In this document: positions 6,032 to 61,522 of the stretch, piece after piece
Layout: each line of letters begins with the position of its first letter
Numbering within the stretch: position 1 is the first letter of the stretch
From: Candidatus Azambacteria bacterium
GTDB lineage: Bacteria; Patescibacteriota; Minisyncoccia; GWC2-36-17; M10-OD1-4
Direction of reading: 5' to 3'
NCBI GenBank assembly: GCA_027048495.1
Contig: JALTWS010000016.1
Location: 1-61,719 of the forward strand
Length of the DNA: 61,719 nucleotides
Position numbers and translations under genes: made by a program
Notes under the pieces: generated by a model
What the model saw: only the letters and a program-made list of their open reading frames with translations
What the model was told of the DNA's origin: nothing
Databases searched by the model: none

Positions 6032-6184
6032 TTCATTCGTTTAACTTACGATCATGAACTGAACGAATGAAAATCTTTTGAGGACAAACCACTCACCTAA
6101 CTCACGATCGTGAGTTAAATGAGTAAAAATCTTTGAGGATAAAATTCACTCATCCAACTCACGATCGTGAGTTGGATGAGTGAA
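6032..6184. repeat. tandem array (3 units, 56-57 bp period) of 34-40 bp palindromes, core AACTCACGATCGTGAGTT (locus 1)
   Basis: Unit 6145-6184 is a perfect 40-nt palindrome (TTCACTCATCCAACTCACGATCGTGAGTTGGATGAGTGAA). Unit 6091-6124 is near-perfect. Unit 6032-6071 has a diverged centre but a perfectly compensated outer stem (TTCATTCGTT/AACGAATGAA). The spacers are similar (AAAATCTTTGAGGA). Confidence 0.95.
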
Positions 6185-6230
6185 TGGGAATAATAAAGAA
6201 AATTTGTGTATTTTGGTTATAATCTTTTTC

Positions 6231-10475: not shown

Positions 10476-10570
10476 TTCACTCACTCAACTCACGATCGTG
10501 AGTTTGGTGAGTGAATTTATTTATAAAAACTTTTAACTCATCTAACTCACGATCGTGAGTTAGATGAGTG
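10476..10570. repeat. tandem array (2 units, 57 bp period) of the AACTCACGATCGTGAGTT palindrome family (locus 2)
   Basis: Unit 10476-10515 (TTCACTCACTCAACTCACGATCGTGAGTTTGGTGAGTGAA) has one mismatched pair and one T:G pair. Unit 10536-10569 is perfect (ACTCATCTAACTCACGATCGTGAGTTAGATGAGT). Confidence 0.95.
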
Positions 10571-10646
10571 AGGTTAGGAAAAAGAGAAATTTTGGGTAGT
10601 CATAACTGTTTTGTAAGGAAACAGATTTTTGTGATATAATTTAAGC

Positions 10647-37845: not shown

Positions 37846-39720
37846 TTATTCCAAAACAGCCTTTATTCTTCTTACTCCCGCAGAAGAAGAACTTTCTTTT
37901 TTTATTTTAAACTTCCCCATTTGGCTAGTGTTTTTTACATGAGGACCTCCGCATATTTCTTTTGAAAAATCTCCAATTGAGTAAACTTTAAGTTTTTTTA
38001 TCCCTTGGTATTTGTCTTTGAAAAATCCCAGCGCGCCAGATTTTTCTGCGTCTTTAAGTGACATCTCCTCGCATTTTACTTCAAGCCCCTTTTGTATCTG
38101 TCTGTTTACCAAATCTTCAATTTTTTGTTTTTGCTCTTCTGTAAGTTTTTCTGGATGAGAAAAGTCAAACCTTAATCTTTCTGCTGTTATGTCAGAACCT
38201 TTTTGCTGAACATGCTTGCCTAAAACTTCACGAAGCGCTTGGTGCAAAAGATGAGTTGCAGTGTGCAGAGCCGTTACTTTTTTAAGTTCTTCTTCATCTG
38301 CCGCTTTAAGCTCGCCGGTTTGCAAAAGCAGTCCGTGTCCTCCAAATTTTTTCTCAGCCCCTTTTTTTGAAACCTCCCTGTGTTTTTCAAATTTTTCTTC
38401 TGCCACTTTTCTAACCTGATATTTGTCAAATTGCCAGCCCATGTTATTAAGCTCTTCTATTGTGTCATCAATCGGAAAACCGTAGCTTTCGTACATATAA
38501 AAAGCAAGCTCTCCAAACTCTTTTTCTGTTAAGTTTTCCGCATCAATTGTCTGTGCTCCCATTTTTTTACCCCAATTTTTAAGATATTTTAATCCGTTTG
38601 AAAGCGCTTTTGAGAATTTTTCTTCTTCTTTTTCAATTTCTGTTAGTATTTGGTTTTGTTTTTTGGCAAGTTCAGGATATGCTGTCTCATATATTTGAAT
38701 TACCTTTTTAACCAAAGGAACATAAAAGTCTTTTTTGGTGTTTAGCATTTTTGCATGCCTTATTGCCCGTCTTATTAATCTTCTTAGAACATAGCCTTGC
38801 TCTTTGTTTGATGGATATATGCCATCAGAAATCAAAAAGCAAGAAGCTTTTATATGGTCTGCTATTATTCTGTAAGAGTGTTTTTGATATACATACTCTA
38901 CACTTGAAATTTTTTGAAGCTCTTCTATTGCAGGATAAAATACATCTGTTTCAAAAACTGTTTCTTTTTTTTGAAGTACCATCGCCATTCTTTCAAGTCC
39001 CATTCCGGTATCTACATTTTTTTGCTTAAGTGGCTTGTATTCTCCTTTTTCTGTTTTTTCATATTCCATAAAAACATTATTCCAAATCTCAACATATTTT
39101 CCGCAATCACAGTTTACATGACATTTTTCTCCAAATTTTTTGTCGTGCTCCTTTCCAGTATCATAAAATATTTCTGTATCAGGCCCGCAAGGCCCTGAAT
39201 TGCCTACCGGTCCCCACCAGTTTTTTTCTTTTGGATACGCATAAATCCTGTTTCCCAAACTCGCATCTATTCCAACATTTTTGAAAGCATCAATCCAAAT
39301 ATCTATTGACTCTTGATCTTTTGGAGCGTCTTTGTCTCCTTCAAATACTGTTACATATATATTTTTAGGATCTAACCCAAACTCATTTACTAAAAGTTCC
39401 AAACTCCAGTTTATTGCTTCTTTTTTAAAGTAATCTCCCAAAGACCAGTTTCCAAGCATTTCAAAAAAAGTTAAGTGCCTGTTGTCTCCAACTTCTAAAA
39501 TATCATCTGTTCTTAGGCATTTTTGTGAACTGGCAAGGCGTTTTCCCTCCGGATGAGGTTCTCCCAAAAGATGCGGAACTAAAGGTTGCATTCCGGCTGT
39601 TATAAAAAGCACTGTTTTGTCGTTTGGCAACAAAGAAGCAGAAGGCAATATTTTATGCCCTCTTTGCTCAAAAAATTTTAAATATTTTTCTCGTATTTGA
39701 TTTGTGGTTAGATTTTTCAT
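37846..39720 (-). CDS. alaS: alanyl-tRNA synthetase (no C-Ala domain)
   Basis: Class II AlaRS core, an editing domain with HTATHLLH and CGGPHV, ending at 624 aa right after the editing domain. Confidence 0.95.
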   Translation of the reverse strand: MKNLTTNQIREKYLKFFEQRGHKILPSASLLPNDKTVLFITAGMQPLVPHLLGEPHPEGKRLASSQKCLRTDDILEVGDNRHLTFFEMLGNWSLGDYFKKEAINWSLELLVNEFGLDPKNIYVTVFEGDKDAPKDQESIDIWIDAFKNVGIDASLGNRIYAYPKEKNWWGPVGNSGPCGPDTEIFYDTGKEHDKKFGEKCHVNCDCGKYVEIWNNVFMEYEKTEKGEYKPLKQKNVDTGMGLERMAMVLQKKETVFETDVFYPAIEELQKISSVEYVYQKHSYRIIADHIKASCFLISDGIYPSNKEQGYVLRRLIRRAIRHAKMLNTKKDFYVPLVKKVIQIYETAYPELAKKQNQILTEIEKEEEKFSKALSNGLKYLKNWGKKMGAQTIDAENLTEKEFGELAFYMYESYGFPIDDTIEELNNMGWQFDKYQVRKVAEEKFEKHREVSKKGAEKKFGGHGLLLQTGELKAADEEELKKVTALHTATHLLHQALREVLGKHVQQKGSDITAERLRFDFSHPEKLTEEQKQKIEDLVNRQIQKGLEVKCEEMSLKDAEKSGALGFFKDKYQGIKKLKVYSIGDFSKEICGGPHVKNTSQMGKFKIKKESSSSAGVRRIKAVLE

Positions 39721-52122: not shown

Positions 52123-52207
52123 ATTTTAATTTTAACATACTATCATAAAACACAAAGATAATCAACCCTAATTTTTTTGTTCTTTTTGCCCACAATAACC
52201 ACAAAAA

Positions 52208-52858
52208 TCAAGATCGATATATCTTTTTTTTACAACTCAAACATTCTTTCATTATTCTTTTGCCACAAAAAGAACAAAATTCAGATGATAAATCTAAAGA
52301 AAAAGAACAATTTGGACACTTTTTATCTCTTAATCTTCTTTTTGCTAATCTTTTTGGATCAAATATTCTTTTTTGAAGCAAGTATACAGACCCACCAAAA
52401 ATAAATGCTACAAATATCATTCCCAAATAGGAAATCAAGCTTTTTAATATTTGAATATTTTTTATAAATCCCCAAATAAATTCAAGTAAAACGCCTAAAA
52501 ATAACCCCCAAAAATAAACAAATGTTATTTGAATAACGAATATAGATACCGGGATAAGCAAAAATGTAAGTATTATAAGATAGGGACTATTTTTTGCACT
52601 AAGTCTAAAATAAAACTTCAAAAGCGCAAAAAACAAAGGAAATACGAACAAGACTTGGAGCAAAAATACATAAAACTCATATAATTTCCAAGACTCTTCA
52701 TATTCTTTTTGCAGTAAAGCATATTTTTCTTTTAAAAGTTTTTCTGATGGTTCTAAATTACTTTCCAACTGAGAAAGAGAAACTTCAAGCAAAGCTATTT
52801 CGCTTTCCAGATTTTTTATTTCTTGTGATAAGCTTTCAGTATTAAAATTTTCCGGCAA
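52208..52858 (-). CDS. coiled-coil multi-TM protein with C-terminal double Zn-ribbon; probable downstream part of a gene split at an A7 tract
   Basis: It has only a TTG start. Its frame stays open for 34 more codons upstream (KKITEIKNSISQKEFELQRLKQNYQLGALEKIGD) up to the A7 run at 52954-52960. The C-terminus is CPNCSFSLDLSSEFCSFCGKRIMKECLSCKKK. Confidence 0.6.
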   Translation of the reverse strand: MPENFNTESLSQEIKNLESEIALLEVSLSQLESNLEPSEKLLKEKYALLQKEYEESWKLYEFYVFLLQVLFVFPLFFALLKFYFRLSAKNSPYLIILTFLLIPVSIFVIQITFVYFWGLFLGVLLEFIWGFIKNIQILKSLISYLGMIFVAFIFGGSVYLLQKRIFDPKRLAKRRLRDKKCPNCSFSLDLSSEFCSFCGKRIMKECLSCKKKIYRS

Positions 52859-52950
52859 GTCCCCTATTTTTTCCAGTGCTCCAAGCTGGTAATTTTGTTT
52901 TAATCTTTGAAGCTCAAATTCTTTTTGAGAAATAGAGTTTTTTATTTCTG

Positions 52951-53214
52951 TTATTTTTTTCTATCTGACTTGGTCTCTGAAAAAATCTTATCTATCCCGT
53001 ATTTTTTTTCAATTTCTGAAAAATTACACTCTTCCGAACTTTGTTGCGGAAAGTAGGTTTTGTAATAATCTCTGTTTAAATAAACATCATCGCGAAAAGA
53101 ATATTCCCAGCCGTATTTAACATATTTTGAAGAGCAAAAAGAAAGCGCCTCAGGTTTTTTAGGCACATTGCTCAAGTCGTCCAGCGTTGCAAAACCAAAA
53201 AGCAAAACCACCAC
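52951..53214 (-). CDS. 87-aa ORF; probable upstream part of the same split gene
   Basis: It ends ..SDRKK-TAA on AGA AAA AAA TAA, and a -1 shift on A AAA AAA enters the 52208..52858 frame. It has a GTG start, with a TATAAT about 17 nt upstream. Confidence 0.4.
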   Translation of the reverse strand: MVVLLFGFATLDDLSNVPKKPEALSFCSSKYVKYGWEYSFRDDVYLNRDYYKTYFPQQSSEECNFSEIEKKYGIDKIFSETKSDRKK

Positions 53215-53385
53215 TAATTACATTTTACATTATAACGCCATAAAAATAAATAATCTATTTAAATTAGGTTATTTATTTATACAAGAGAATACTACGGAGG
53301 TCGGTGCTCGGCAAGATTAGAAAACTCAGTTTTTTGAAAAGGTTCAACCTTTTCAAACTTTCGGAGGTCAAATTTCAAATAATTA

Positions 53386-53727
53386 TTATTTTTTAGGATT
53401 TCGTTTTAAGTATTTTTTAACTGGTTTTGTCACACTATTTTGATTAATGTTTTTATTTTTACAATATTTTGTTTTAAACCAATCTATCAACTTTTTTACC
53501 CCCCCTACTTGAATTACACTAAGAACAACAAATTACAATATCTTCTATTTTTAATCCATCTTTCCAATAAAAAGGGCCGTCAAAATTTAAATGTTCTATT
53601 GTGGCGCTATCTTTTCTATTATTTACATCATAAGGATAGATCATTTTTTTATGGCAATAAACACAACTTTTATCTCTAAAAAATAATCTTTTTAATCTTC
53701 TTCTGGGATTCCAAATTTATTAGTCAT
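53386..53727 (-). pseudogene. decayed HNH endonuclease gene
   Basis: The minus strand reads MTNKFGIPEED, then a frameshift, then KRLFFRDKSCVYCHKKMIYPYDVNNRKDSATIEHLNFDGPFYWKDGLKIEDIVICCS, then TAG, then CNSSRG, then a G7 frameshift, then KKLIDWFKTKYCKNKNINQNSVTKPVKKYLKRNPKK. That makes three disrupting lesions. Confidence 0.75.
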
Positions 53728-53739
53728 AATATAAAATAG

Positions 53740-54369
53740 CTAAAGATAATTTTCTAATTCTAAAATATCATGATCATTTAATGGTATTTTCCAAAGCTCA
53801 TTAACTAACCAAAGCCCACTTTTCCTTATTTTTTCTTTTGGAGAGAAATTGCCTAACCAATTTTCAGAAGGTTTACATTCTTCACAAATAGAAACAGTAG
53901 AGATTATTCTTGATTCAAAATATAATCTTTTATTTTTGTCATCTATCTGAAAAACGATAAAAGAAAAATTATCCCGAATATATTTTGTTACTTTCTTTTC
54001 AATTTCTTTCTGCTTATCAAAATCAACAGAGTCAGAATATTGGTCTTTAGCATTTCTTGTTGTTAAATCTAATTCCCATTTTTCAAGGAATGGATCTTTA
54101 TCTTTATTCAATAATGCTCTGCCAATATTTTTCCTGAAAATGCTCCTGTCTTTATTCTCTTTCAAGAAATGCTGAAATAATCTTGAACGAAGTTGGTTTT
54201 GTCCTGTGTGCGTTCCAATTCTTACAATTCTATTAGTTGAATGGGCAAATTCATTTTTTTCAAATAAGATATAAATTCCGTTTTCAGGAATTTCTTGTTT
54301 ATCAAAAGGAAATGTGAATTTTTTCATTCCATTAAACCATTGATGAATTGTATTGCAATTTTTACTCAT
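53740..54369 (-). CDS. GIY-YIG/T5orf172-like nuclease-domain protein
   Basis: NGIYILFEKNEFAHSTNRIVRIGTHTGQNQLRSRLFQHF shows the GIY .. (R)IG .. R spacing, with later FRKNIGRALL and YFESRI. The likely start is ATG 54369, which overlaps the upstream stop (ATGAGTAA). Confidence 0.6.
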   Translation of the reverse strand: MSKNCNTIHQWFNGMKKFTFPFDKQEIPENGIYILFEKNEFAHSTNRIVRIGTHTGQNQLRSRLFQHFLKENKDRSIFRKNIGRALLNKDKDPFLEKWELDLTTRNAKDQYSDSVDFDKQKEIEKKVTKYIRDNFSFIVFQIDDKNKRLYFESRIISTVSICEECKPSENWLGNFSPKEKIRKSGLWLVNELWKIPLNDHDILELENYL

Positions 54370-54781
54370 TTTTAATCCTCTTAGACAGCCATTGAAGTTG
54401 TTTTCCAATGCCTAAACCCAACATTGGAATTTTATAATGTTTAAGATGTGGGAGTAAAAATTTTCTGTAATTATTCCCAGCCAGAAAAATAAATTCATCA
54501 TTTTCAATATCTGTTGATTTTTTCAATTGGTTTAATACAGAATTTGTCCACTCTTTTATTTCGTTGGAACGCATTTTATTGAGAGTTTTATCATAAGGTT
54601 CAATCTCTTTATTCAATCTCAATAAACCATATTTAGCAGAAAGAATGAAAATTTTATCAGGATTTAGAGATTTTGCGTACTGTAGGTTTTTCTTGAAAAG
54701 TGGGCTTACATACAAGTCTTGAGCTTTGGATTTATGATGAAGTTTTTTACTTGTGCACGAAATTAAGACAACTTTTGCCAT
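54362..54781 (-). CDS. DUF6884-like small protein (139 aa)
   Basis: KVVLISCTSKK..AQDLYVSPLFKK..IFILSAKYGLL..IEPYD..L matches my recollection of the DUF6884 pattern. The assignment is tentative and has not been verified by a database search. Confidence 0.5.
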   Translation of the reverse strand: MAKVVLISCTSKKLHHKSKAQDLYVSPLFKKNLQYAKSLNPDKIFILSAKYGLLRLNKEIEPYDKTLNKMRSNEIKEWTNSVLNQLKKSTDIENDEFIFLAGNNYRKFLLPHLKHYKIPMLGLGIGKQLQWLSKRIKNE

Positions 54782-54871
54782 TATACTAATAATGAAATCA
54801 AAATTATTACAGATGACTGAAGTCAGATTTCGACAACTTGGACTTCGGATAAATTAAAATAAGTTATTTTT

Positions 54872-55504
54872 TTAATCCAAATCAGAGTTTTCATTTGCAA
54901 TAGTAAGCACTCTTGAACGCTCATTCCCGGTAATGGTAAATCTAACTCCGTTAATAACTTTATTTGTATTCTGTGCAATATTTTCCATAACCCAGTTTTT
55001 AGCATAAACTTGGTCAGAATTATCATAAGGTATGCTAGCAATGTAGCCTAAAAAATCTTTAGCAACAATATCAGTAGACTTGCCACTATAATTTAAAGCA
55101 GTCGCCTGTACGGTTAATATTTCAGAAGGACCTTCACCCAAAATTTCGACAAGATACATATATTCTGATGTTTCTTCTTTACACTCCCACGATGCTAATC
55201 CGTTGTTAGAGCCCACATTAGGACCAGAACAAGAAAAACCGATATTATTTAAATTACCATAAATATCGACTGCGCTTACGCCTGGTATTGTAGCTATTTT
55301 TTTTAGTTCTTCCTTTACTGGAGTAATCGACTCATTTTTAACTTCCACTTGTTCTTCTTGCTTTTGTGGAGCAGAAGTGTTTTGTTTATTTGATAAATTA
55401 TCATTATCAGTTAATAAACTGATTATGATTAGACCAAGAAAGACAAACAAAATTATTGCCCACCATTTTTTATACCAAGGTTTTTGAATTTTTTCCATTG
55501 TCAT
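54872..55504 (-). CDS. membrane-anchored hypothetical protein
   Basis: The likely start is MTMEKIQKPWYKKWWAIILFVFLGLIIISLL (TM segment), followed by an extracytoplasmic domain with 2 Cys. The ORF is open from 55609 but that stretch overlaps the fba 3' end. Confidence 0.55.
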   Translation of the reverse strand: MTMEKIQKPWYKKWWAIILFVFLGLIIISLLTDNDNLSNKQNTSAPQKQEEQVEVKNESITPVKEELKKIATIPGVSAVDIYGNLNNIGFSCSGPNVGSNNGLASWECKEETSEYMYLVEILGEGPSEILTVQATALNYSGKSTDIVAKDFLGYIASIPYDNSDQVYAKNWVMENIAQNTNKVINGVRFTITGNERSRVLTIANENSDLD

Positions 55505-55584
55505 ATTTTTAAAATTAGTTAATAAGAAACGCCAAAAATCTTTTTTTTCAGAAAGAAATTTTACGTAATTAGCTTTTATGCAAA

Positions 55585-56457
55585 CTAAGCCTTTCCGTTG
55601 CTTCCGCAAATTAGCATTTTCTCTTCCACAACTTTTTGCATTTTCTCTTGCGCAGGAGCTATAAATTTATATGGAGTTATCTCTCCTTCTTCCAGTTTTT
55701 CTTTTATGGCGGAAGAAAAGACTACTCTTAACTCTGTGTTTACGTTTATCTTGCGTATCCCCAACTCAACTGACTTTTTAACATCTTCATCGGGAATACC
55801 CGAAGCGCCATGCAAAACCAAAACACACTTCCCTTTTAAAGTTTCTTGAAGTTCTGAGAGTCTTTGCATATCAAGTTTTGGCATGGCAACTTTTGAGATA
55901 CCATGCATGTTGCCTATTGAAACTCCGAGCCTGTCCACTCCGGTTGTCTCTACAAACTCCAAAGCCTGCTTTGGGTCTGTTAAATATTCGTCTTTTATCT
56001 CTATCTTCTCTTCAAAAACTTTAGAAGACCCTGTTCCGCCAATTTGCCCCAGCTCTCCTTCAACAGATATATCTTCGCTTACTTCCCTGCACATTTTTAC
56101 AGCTTTTTTTGTAAGTTCCAAATTTTCCTCATAGGGCAAAAGTGAACCGTCAAAGTGGATAGAGTTGTAGCCAGCATCAAGATATTGCTTTACTTTTTCT
56201 AATGATTTTGTGTGATCAGCATTTAAAATAACAGGGAGGCCTGTTTTTTTCTCATAAAAGTTTGCCAAAACAACTGCCTGCTCCATTCCTAAAAAACCAG
56301 ATTCTCCTTCTGATGTTCCAAACATTATAGGAGATCTTAATTTTTCTGCCGCTTTTACAACTGCCTTCATCTGATCCGCAGAAGAAACATTAAGCTGTGG
56401 TATTGCATATCTGCCATTTTCTGCTTTTTGAAATATTTTTTTTGTATTTAAATTCAT
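55585..56457 (-). CDS. fba: class II fructose-bisphosphate aldolase
   Basis: IPQLNVSS, NADHTKS, HFDGS, EGELG and VLHGASG. ATG 56457 (MNLNTKK) is preferred over 56487. Confidence 0.9.
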   Translation of the reverse strand: MNLNTKKIFQKAENGRYAIPQLNVSSADQMKAVVKAAEKLRSPIMFGTSEGESGFLGMEQAVVLANFYEKKTGLPVILNADHTKSLEKVKQYLDAGYNSIHFDGSLLPYEENLELTKKAVKMCREVSEDISVEGELGQIGGTGSSKVFEEKIEIKDEYLTDPKQALEFVETTGVDRLGVSIGNMHGISKVAMPKLDMQRLSELQETLKGKCVLVLHGASGIPDEDVKKSVELGIRKINVNTELRVVFSSAIKEKLEEGEITPYKFIAPAQEKMQKVVEEKMLICGSNGKA

Positions 56458-61364: not shown

Positions 61365-61458
61365 TCACTCACCCAACTCACGATCGTGAGTTGGGTGAGT
61401 GAGTTTACTTTTTAAATCTTTTACTCACCTAACTCACGATCGTGAGTTAGGTGAGTAA
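61365..61458. repeat. tandem array (2 units, 56 bp period) of the AACTCACGATCGTGAGTT palindrome family (locus 3)
   Basis: Both units are perfect 38-nt palindromes: 61365-61402 TCACTCACCCAACTCACGATCGTGAGTTGGGTGAGTGA and 61421-61458 TTACTCACCTAACTCACGATCGTGAGTTAGGTGAGTAA. Confidence 0.95.
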
Positions 61459-61522
61459 GGAAAAATATTGAGTAATTTTTTTAACTTGTCTTCTGTTTTG
61501 TATAAGTATAATTTTAAAGATT

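Follow-up and report, generated by a model that had tools for sequence, protein, structure and literature searches.

The closest described counterpart of the gene pair considered here is a catalogue entry. Payne et al. 2024 compiled 145 single- or multi-gene candidates whose homologues are embedded in BREX, DISARM or type I restriction-modification (RM) operons, and in their supplement the cassette CAS_00183 (FAM_03160>>FAM_00294), with a count of 46 in RefSeq genomes, has the entry 'Assign as candidate PDC-M57' (bioRxiv 10.1101/2024.01.29.577857). The pair that we analyse lies on a contig of 61,719 nucleotides from a Candidatus Azambacteria assembly (GCA_027048495.1, contig JALTWS010000016.1), the whole of which is called the window in the following, and it consists of gene A, encoding a DUF6884 protein, and gene B, encoding a divergent protein of the GIY-YIG type. 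Protein A matches the PADLOC profile PDC-M57A with E 2.4e-64 (residues 1-136, aligned to positions 1-136 of the 138 in the profile), protein B matches PDC-M57B with E 2.3e-101 (residues 1-207, aligned to positions 1-207 of 211), and the two genes have the PDC-M57 layout, being adjacent, on the same strand and in the order A>>B. Judged by these profile matches, the pair belongs to the catalogued candidate PDC-M57 and is no new system. In both hidden Markov models (HMMs), in gene order and in adjacency the two are the same, with no structural difference; the catalogue entry is a RefSeq prediction, whereas the window copy comes from a metagenome-assembled genome (MAG) of Patescibacteria and lies outside any RM, BREX or DISARM operon. 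An earlier reading of this DNA from its letters alone (the sequence-only reading) had held that no system of such composition was described, and had named a match to an already named system as something that would speak against it; since both proteins match PDC-M57 over their full length, this claim of novelty has to be given up. Its description of the pair as an uncharacterised candidate module stands, PDC-M57 being catalogued as a candidate without an assigned function. What is new here is the strength of the A-B linkage and the frequency of fusion, the spread between bacteria and archaea at high DNA identity, the link of DUF6884 to base chemistry of the DpdC type, and the presence/absence polymorphism of the islet that holds the pair. 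The reading that we favour, with a probability of about 45%, is that the pair may be a restriction-like DNA-targeting defence unit.

The sole biochemically characterised DUF6884 protein is DpdC, which carries this domain (PMC11888242), converts preQ0-DNA into ADG-DNA in vitro (PMC10164549) and modifies a base in duplex DNA with water as the only co-substrate (PMC10164549, PMC11888242). The family is related to the DNA-binding protein YaaA, with which it has the 'cantaloupe' fold and a DNA-binding cleft in common; the Pfam authors singled out CxxxK and LSAxxG as the DUF6884 motifs, and an AlphaFold 3 (AF3) model places a flipped base in the pocket of these two motifs (PMC11701544). The DUF6884 member YfjM of B. 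subtilis was pulled down on DNA baits with abasic sites and with ribonucleotides (PMC10220248). Because DpdC acts on a base of duplex DNA, YaaA binds DNA and YfjM binds lesion-containing DNA, we read protein A as DNA-directed, with a putative role in sensing. Its family membership, put forward in the sequence-only reading from the sequence pattern, is confirmed by a full-length match to Pfam DUF6884 (PF21818), which has E 4.9e-49 and 166.4 bits, the cut-off being 30, and covers profile positions 1-134 of 135, and phrog_5935 is matched with E 5e-30. Both motifs are present, CxxxK as C9-T-S-K-K13 and LSAxxG as L47-S-A-K-Y-G52, and in the alignment of 118 A-B fusions C9, K13, S48 and K50 are conserved. 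Matches to Pfam YaaA (E 2.2e-5, residues 42-114, under the Pfam threshold) and to the PADLOC DpdC models (E ~2e-5, residues 13-111) are weak. Protein A thus shares with DpdC, of the Dpd system of 7-deazaguanine DNA modification and restriction, the DUF6884 domain and a weak match to its HMMs, but DpdC has ~310 aa and works downstream of DpdA and DpdB with preQ0, and genes for DpdA (TGT-like), DpdB or preQ0 synthesis (dpd/que) were found neither in the islet nor among the most frequent neighbour families. With YaaA of E. coli (PDB 5CAJ) and with YfjM it has the core motif region LSAxYG...PY in common; unlike A, these two stand alone and lack a nuclease partner.

The two genes, on the minus strand, are intact, and the overlapping stop and start that the sequence-only reading had described are found as such. 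The 8 nt common to both genes, ATGAGTAA, are read as part of AAA AAT GAG TAA in the frame of A and of ATG AGT AAA in the frame of B; the listing of open reading frames (ORFs) starts B at TTG 54408, giving 222 aa, and the length of 209 aa is counted from the ATG. Copies from archaea and from bacteria (L001, L003, L005 and others) retain the identical 8-nt overlap, and the natural A-B fusions join at its position. From its arrangement, the overlap is taken to be a translational coupling of A and B. To see how tightly the two are linked, consider the scan for B with one genome per species, where 185,579 species gave 40 loci, 33 of them evaluable in having a full B and sufficient upstream DNA. A lies directly upstream of B in 25 of the 33, usually with the 8-nt overlap, and is fused to it in frame in a further five (L021, L023, L026, L027, L039), i.e., it is adjacent or fused in 30 of the 33 evaluable genomes, which supports the reading of the two as one unit. 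In the other three (L019, L022, L041) A is absent beside B without obvious decay. One of these, a Gammaproteobacteria MAG (L022, 2447-2857), has in A's place, directly upstream of an intact B, an unrelated 136-aa protein whose sole match, sub-threshold at E 0.019, points to the superfamily of uracil-DNA glycosylases; this protein, too, may be a partner that flips bases.

The same linkage is seen in the protein collections. An exhaustive search of 1.84 billion cluster representatives gave 1,420 relatives of B at E <= 1e-3, and among the best 150 (50%-identity representatives), in which the domains were surveyed, DUF6884 is in the same chain as B in 51, DUF7662 is C-terminal in 10, and a PIF1-like helicase or TPR repeats are added in single cases. 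A single fusion query returned 118 A-B fusions, including those of Capnocytophaga leadbetteri and Methanobacteriaceae. The fusion P0293 is ~69% identical to both window proteins and aligns with residues 1-132 of A and then with residues 5-205 of B. It is also noted that DUF7662 (E 5e-19) is C-terminal on A-B fusions in the family members P0139, P0138 and P0306, that P0191 carries the PIF1-like helicase and that P0228 carries a long TPR array. The exact sequence of the window's protein A is not on record by exact look-up. Against 11 other copies, the ratio of nonsynonymous to synonymous substitutions (dN/dS) is 0.06-0.28 for both genes, which shows purifying selection on each of them. The divergence of the two genes is unequal, with dS 0.73 for A and 0.22 for B in the comparison with L008 and with the reverse in that with L024, and these unequal values in single comparisons suggest recombination between cassettes. 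Selection on the pair had also been claimed in the sequence-only reading, on the ground that an HNH gene next to it has decayed; the selection stands by the dN/dS values, but the contrast with the HNH gene says little about it, because the remnant is not conserved beside other copies and lies outside the conserved cassette.

We now consider protein B. Its name comes from its homologues: the precomputed Pfam family PF26468 (GIY_YIG_3) is on 120 of 120 B homologues among the matches listed (77-91% identical), the window's own B being labelled through these homologues. Conserved in B are G31-I-Y33, R47, R50-I-G52, H54, R63, H67, K80, E124, R148, E152, W171 and G173; over 149 sequences G31, Y33, G52, H54 and R63 are invariant, H67 is (nearly) invariant and E152 is more than 90% conserved. 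The AlphaFold 2 (AF2) model of B (pLDDT 94.4, predicted TM-score (pTM) 0.90) has the order beta-beta-alpha...beta-alpha, with strand 32-42 (G31-I-Y33), strand 45-52 (R50-I-G52) and helix 60-68 (R63, H67), followed by a helical insertion, strand 135-140 and helix 145-161 (E152). This order of the secondary-structure elements is that of GIY-YIG proteins. Profile matches point the same way at low significance: among 35 B-only members the weak Pfam matches are DUF123 in 14, GIY_YIG_2 in 5 and GIY-YIG in 5, with DUF3490 (6, E >= 0.019) and DUF6761 (3) also recurring, and among the best 150 relatives GIY_YIG_2 is found in 6 (best 1.5e-5) and GIY-YIG reaches 4.7e-4 at best, all GIY_YIG_2, GIY-YIG and DUF123 matches being under the curated cut-offs. 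DUF123 is a member of the GIY-YIG clan. Compared with the GIY-YIG nucleases UvrC, I-TevI/Seg and those of the Eco29kI type, B has GIY at the beta-hairpin, Arg-x3-His on the next helix and Glu on the helix after the third strand, but differs from them by RIG in the second motif, by a helical insertion of ~45 residues, by a conserved W/G-rich C-terminal extension and by the lack of a significant match to a solved enzyme. From such weak profile matches and motifs, B is treated as a highly derived GIY-YIG-type protein, and its catalytic competence is plausible, with the catalytic positions (R63-x3-H67, E152) placed by motif and topology rather than by alignment to a solved enzyme. The double label 'GIY-YIG/T5orf172-like' of the sequence-only reading is therefore kept in its first half, through PF26468 on the homologues, and dropped in its second, since T5orf172 (PF10544) gives no match for the window's B; T5orf172 is not among the 25 most frequent families of the best 150 relatives or among all 14 families of the 35 relatives. 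A Cas2 label, suggested by one JGI annotation and by a PADLOC match with E 0.015, was treated as noise.

The pair occurs in both domains of prokaryotes. Between the window cassette and copies of DPANN archaea the DNA identity is 70-88%, and by blastn the shared DNA is limited to window 53752 to 54781-54809, i.e., to the two ORFs and a leader of <= ~28 nt, the flanks being unrelated in every locus. A Woesearchaeota MAG has a copy with 90% identity to B, and a 103-kb Pacearchaeota contig has one with 85%, the neighbours of which are archaeal (RIO1, archaeal Cdc45/RecJ, Ribosomal_S13_N, SRP54). Further copies of B, 56-80% identical, are in Methanosarcinales, Nitrospirota, Flavobacteriaceae, Melioribacteraceae, Saccharibacteria, Anaerolineae and Pirellulaceae; a DNA identity of 70-88%, with unrelated flanks, is also reached by copies in Methanosarcinales, Bacteroidota, Chloroflexota and other groups, and many carriers are organisms of the candidate phyla radiation (CPR) or of DPANN with reduced genomes. 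The GC content of the pair is 0.26-0.35, equal to or under that of the hosts (up to 0.46). Decayed copies are present in 5 of the 40 loci: one has a stop within B (L014), three keep only the C-terminal third of B (L044-L046), and one has A residues 1-20 beside B residues 156-198 (L047). B was found in none of 50,697 phage records, and in 72,556 plasmids its relatives number only 8; they are distant (25-31% identity), are mostly carried by megaplasmids of haloarchaea and match a second PDC-M57B model. One of these plasmids, pHsi139 of Haloarcula sinaiiensis (L048, 4884-9493), has a distant PDC-M57B-type gene (second model, E 8e-64) with an annotated HNH endonuclease gene convergent beside it and a 281-aa DUF6884 protein unlinked, 3 kb off. 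By these DNA comparisons the cassette is a horizontally mobile accessory gene unit, with transfer between bacteria and archaea included. An identity of 70-88% at the DNA level across domains is a clean case of recent gene exchange among bacterial and archaeal episymbionts of common habitats.

In the Azambacteria genome itself the pair is a variable part. It lies in a strain-specific islet of GC 0.288, against 0.32 for the window, which on the minus strand holds in order a membrane-anchored 209-aa protein, A, B, an HNH remnant, an 87-aa ORF and a 216-aa zinc-ribbon protein (Table 1). A sister contig (L053), with an identical L25 protein and 99.6% and 99.3% identity to the window on the two sides of the islet, has at this position only 59 bp, mostly a perfect 34-nt palindrome centred on CGATCG. 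The forms of the islet were read from contigs of public runs of one hydrothermal-vent study. Run X1 has the full islet and run X3 the empty form, its contigs breaking off at 52174 and at 55597 and the palindrome forming a loose end. Run X2 has what is tentatively a partial form, a more diverged contig, ~82-95% alike, with the joint 53461->54976 and 9 letters (CAATATTTT) that can be placed on both sides of it; a 1.5-kb segment is missing here, which comprises the HNH remnant and the pair, together with the end of the gene for the membrane protein. The 9-bp repeat CAATATTTT at the two edges of this segment could be a target-site duplication or the trace of a microhomology deletion. At the ends of the islet and of the cassette, terminal direct or inverted repeats amount only to chance-level AT-rich matches, and a metagenome scan with the neighbouring aldolase for sister genomes gave a 29% relative only. 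That the pair lies within a strain-variable islet supports the candidate defence or mobile character which the sequence-only reading had suggested.

Table 1. Positions in the window of the gene pair and of the features of the islet around it.
Feature	Position	Strand	Remarks
Gene A	54362..54781	(-)	stand-alone DUF6884 protein, 139 aa, PDC-M57A, YaaA/DpdC-like; N-terminus MAKVVLISCTSKK
Gene B	53740..54369	(-)	divergent GIY-YIG-type protein, 209 aa from ATG, GIY_YIG_3 / PDC-M57B
Stop/start overlap ATGAGTAA	54362..54369	(-)	8 nt common to A and B
Leader 5' of A	54782..54809	(-)	still alignable with other cassette copies; blastn similarity ends here
Strain-specific islet with the pair	52175..55585		3,411 bp; from comparison with sister contig L053
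Islet gene, 209-aa protein with N-terminal membrane anchor	54872..55501	(-)	ORF; unmatched in Pfam and PADLOC
Islet gene, 216-aa membrane protein with C-terminal zinc ribbon	52208..52858	(-)	Pfam DZR/zinc-ribbon E 2.6e-5, under cut-off
HNH-like remnant	53474..53727	(-)	broken frame directly 3' of B; outside the conserved cassette
9-bp direct repeat CAATATTTT, copy 1	53462..53470	(+)	edge of the segment missing in X2
9-bp direct repeat CAATATTTT, copy 2	54976..54984	(+)	edge of the segment missing in X2

Based on the reading of the pair as a defence unit, A and B would form a single DNA-acting unit, either as two coupled proteins or as one fused protein. The DUF6884 part, of the YaaA/DpdC/YfjM fold group, would bind DNA and inspect a flipped-out base, be it modified, foreign or damaged, and the divergent GIY-YIG part would then cleave the strand, the whole acting as a compact type IV-like system, reader plus nuclease, against phages or other invading DNA. 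Reader-plus-nuclease restriction enzymes are designed in this way, a DNA-reading module being linked to a small nuclease or fused with it, and type IV restriction enzymes combine a reader domain with a nuclease, e.g., in SRA-, EVE- or YTH-nuclease fusions. It is because of this design, of the gain and loss seen in this accessory, horizontally mobile unit, and of the embedding of the family in RM-type operons recorded by Payne et al., that we prefer defence. The resemblance to type IV enzymes lies in the architecture, with a base-inspecting module joined to a small nuclease as a partner or in one chain; it is a functional analogy only, and we know of no DUF6884 reader shown to recognise modified bases. 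A type IV-like neighbour is present in one locus, where B adjoins an EVE+REase_II protein: in this Anaerolineae MAG (L041, 4636-5892) an intact B without A directly follows a 418-aa protein that has a weak EVE match (E 0.0015) and whose C-terminal domain resembles type II restriction enzymes (PADLOC REase_II, E 8.7e-15).

Several results weigh against this reading. PDCs are unpublished or unvalidated predictions according to later surveys (PMC12988326, PMC11811056), and the main texts of the literature were found to have no discussion of PDC-M57, PF26468, GIY_YIG_3 or DUF7662. Against the local Pfam copy the window's B has no significant match, the best being DUF123 with E 0.043; the B family HMM has no match among all PDB sequences at E 10; and hhalign of the B-only alignment with the N-terminus of E. 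coli UvrC and with a SegA/SegF/I-TevII/UvrC set, a poor reference alignment, gives nothing. The sequence-only reading had let its case depend on the catalytic residues of the second protein: of these Y33, R63, H67 and E152 are conserved in B, but the second motif is RIG (R50-I-G52), with Arg replacing the Tyr of YIG, in a more distant set of B proteins the Tyr of GIY and E152 vary in a few members, and neither hhalign nor Foldseek provides a link to a canonical GIY-YIG enzyme. With Foldseek the B model has no match in the PDB at E < 1 despite its pLDDT of 94 and nothing significant in BFVD, where GIY-YIG/Seg-like proteins recur at the insignificant ranks 6, 10, 19, 24, 26 and 35; this blank is uninformative rather than contradictory for a GIY-YIG fold of B. 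For the A-B fusion, Foldseek against the PDB likewise returns nothing significant, so that YaaA is not recovered for the A domain, and although both domains of the fusion model are well folded (pLDDT 92.4), no confident A:B interface is predicted, because its pTM is 0.65. As regards the surroundings, there are defence-type neighbours, namely a type I RM operon (L003), the EVE+REase_II gene mentioned above and an integrase (L005), but among 122 immediate neighbours in 35 loci only ~5 are DNA methyltransferase-like and 2 are integrases, with most being housekeeping genes, and the defence context in the sampled loci is modest.

The main rival is a lesion-repair nuclease, which we consider unlikely. 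According to it, A would flip a lesion base (abasic, ribonucleotide, mismatched or otherwise damaged) and B would nick nearby, the pair being an accessory excision-repair module acquired by organisms with small genomes. This is what the Pfam authors' proposal of a repair role, derived from the AF3 model (PMC11701544), would lead one to expect, as would the enrichment of YfjM on abasic and RNA-base DNA baits (PMC10220248). Moreover, a PIF1-like helicase is fused to one member of the family, many of the hosts belong to CPR or DPANN and have reduced genomes, and the neighbours are mostly housekeeping genes. The GIY-YIG nucleases UvrC and Slx1 also act in repair. Against this proposal, the pair is present in one and absent from the other of two strains that are 99.5% identical, it shows rampant recent transfer between domains and decay in 5 of 40 loci, and its family was found embedded in RM, BREX and DISARM systems (Payne et al.). 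Gain and loss, transfer, decay and RM embedding fit defence or selfish genes better than repair.

A second alternative follows the logic of restriction-modification, with A chemically altering a base of the host DNA, as DpdC does, and B cutting DNA that lacks the mark; we regard it as very unlikely. In its favour, DpdC modifies a base in duplex DNA with water only as co-substrate (PMC10164549, PMC11888242), and A retains the conserved Cys, Lys and Ser residues of the pocket. GIY-YIG type II restriction enzymes, such as Eco29kI and Hpy188I, exist as well. By contrast, A with its 139 aa has no cofactor- or donor-binding domain, and the substrate of DpdC requires DpdA/DpdB and preQ0 synthesis, none of which is among the most frequent neighbour families. 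In addition, in the three of 33 loci with B and without A a nuclease that depends on a mark would be lethal.

Finally, we give very little credence to a selfish element. This would be an addiction pair of the toxin-antitoxin kind, with B as the toxic nuclease and A as the antidote, or else a free-standing homing endonuclease that has a helper. In its favour are the small upstream gene translationally coupled to the nuclease gene, the movement of the cassette as two bare genes, the decayed homing-type HNH gene that adjoins it and the X2 variant, which is without a segment that the CAATATTTT repeats flank. On the other hand, an antidote that has to be titrated separately does not suit the 51 in-frame A-B fusions among 150, the flanks differ in every genome with no conserved homing or insertion site, phage copies are absent and plasmid relatives few and distant in the records given above, and there are no terminal repeats at the pair or the islet.

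If PDC-M57 works as a defence, as in the reading that we favour, it would provide the first function of the widespread DUF6884 domain beyond DpdC and an immune module of ~1 kb suited to the smallest known genomes, those of CPR and DPANN organisms, in which RM and CRISPR systems are scarce (PMC12988326). A bolder version, which is in our view unlikely to hold, is that of a new class of restriction-like immunity, where a cofactor-free DUF6884 base flipper, related to DpdC and YaaA, would read or chemically probe the base and thereby license a highly derived GIY-YIG nuclease, in a compact, self-contained unit with a promoter-like leader possibly active in both domains, which would pass with ease between bacteria of the CPR and archaea of the DPANN group. 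Since fusions occur naturally in hosts that can be cultured (Capnocytophaga leadbetteri P0377 and P0383), the question of function is directly testable.

As for the promoter-like leader, the archaeal copies L001, L003, L008, L009 and L012 share, in the stretch ~24-37 nt 5' of gene A, the sequence AGCAAACTTTATTAAA at ~24-32 nt from the ATG, which resembles the BRE/TATA box of a leaderless transcript. At the position of this upstream element the Berkelbacteria copy has TTTATAAT, and the window copy has TGTAATAAT, extended -10-like (window 54782-54830). One AT-rich element upstream of A may serve as a promoter in both domains. A scan of the islet for sigma-70 promoters and terminators was at chance level.

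The HNH gene that the sequence-only reading saw decaying downstream of the pair is indeed a broken frame. Three-frame translation gives the spacing CxxC...EH...CxxCN, and the frame contains a TAG (53519-53521, in frame) and changes close to its start. The Cys/His spacing is HNH-like, but the read-through of the remnant has no Pfam match even at E 10, and the likeness to annotated HNH homing endonucleases of Caulobacter phages is weak (tblastn, 41% over 54 aa, E 3e-3). At the other loci there is no DNA similarity past the stop codon of B, and a regex search found no intact HNH genes beside other cassette copies.

Further, we note some features of the window at large. Since the empty site of the sister strain is a 34-nt CGATCG palindrome, the islet takes the place of a hairpin that is similar in general kind to others in this genome. 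Perfect palindromes like repetitive extragenic palindromes (REP-like), centred on CGATCG with arms of 9-21 nt, stand in intergenic tandem pairs at window 6100-6185, 10488-10575 and 61376-61465, and also at 700-915 and 7581-7614 of L053, and their centres account for 6 of the 7 CGATCG sites of the window. The host is a bacterium of the Patescibacteria: the window encodes PriA, a bacterial GltX, a PcrA-type helicase, ribosomal protein L25 and release factor 1 (RF-1), and the best named relatives of the alanyl-tRNA synthetase, at 72%, are those of Candidatus Azambacteria. The alanyl-tRNA synthetase of the window (37846-39720) is of the short, 624-aa form, and the assembly GCA_054032795.1 (L054) has a 92%-identical alanyl-tRNA synthetase with conserved local synteny.

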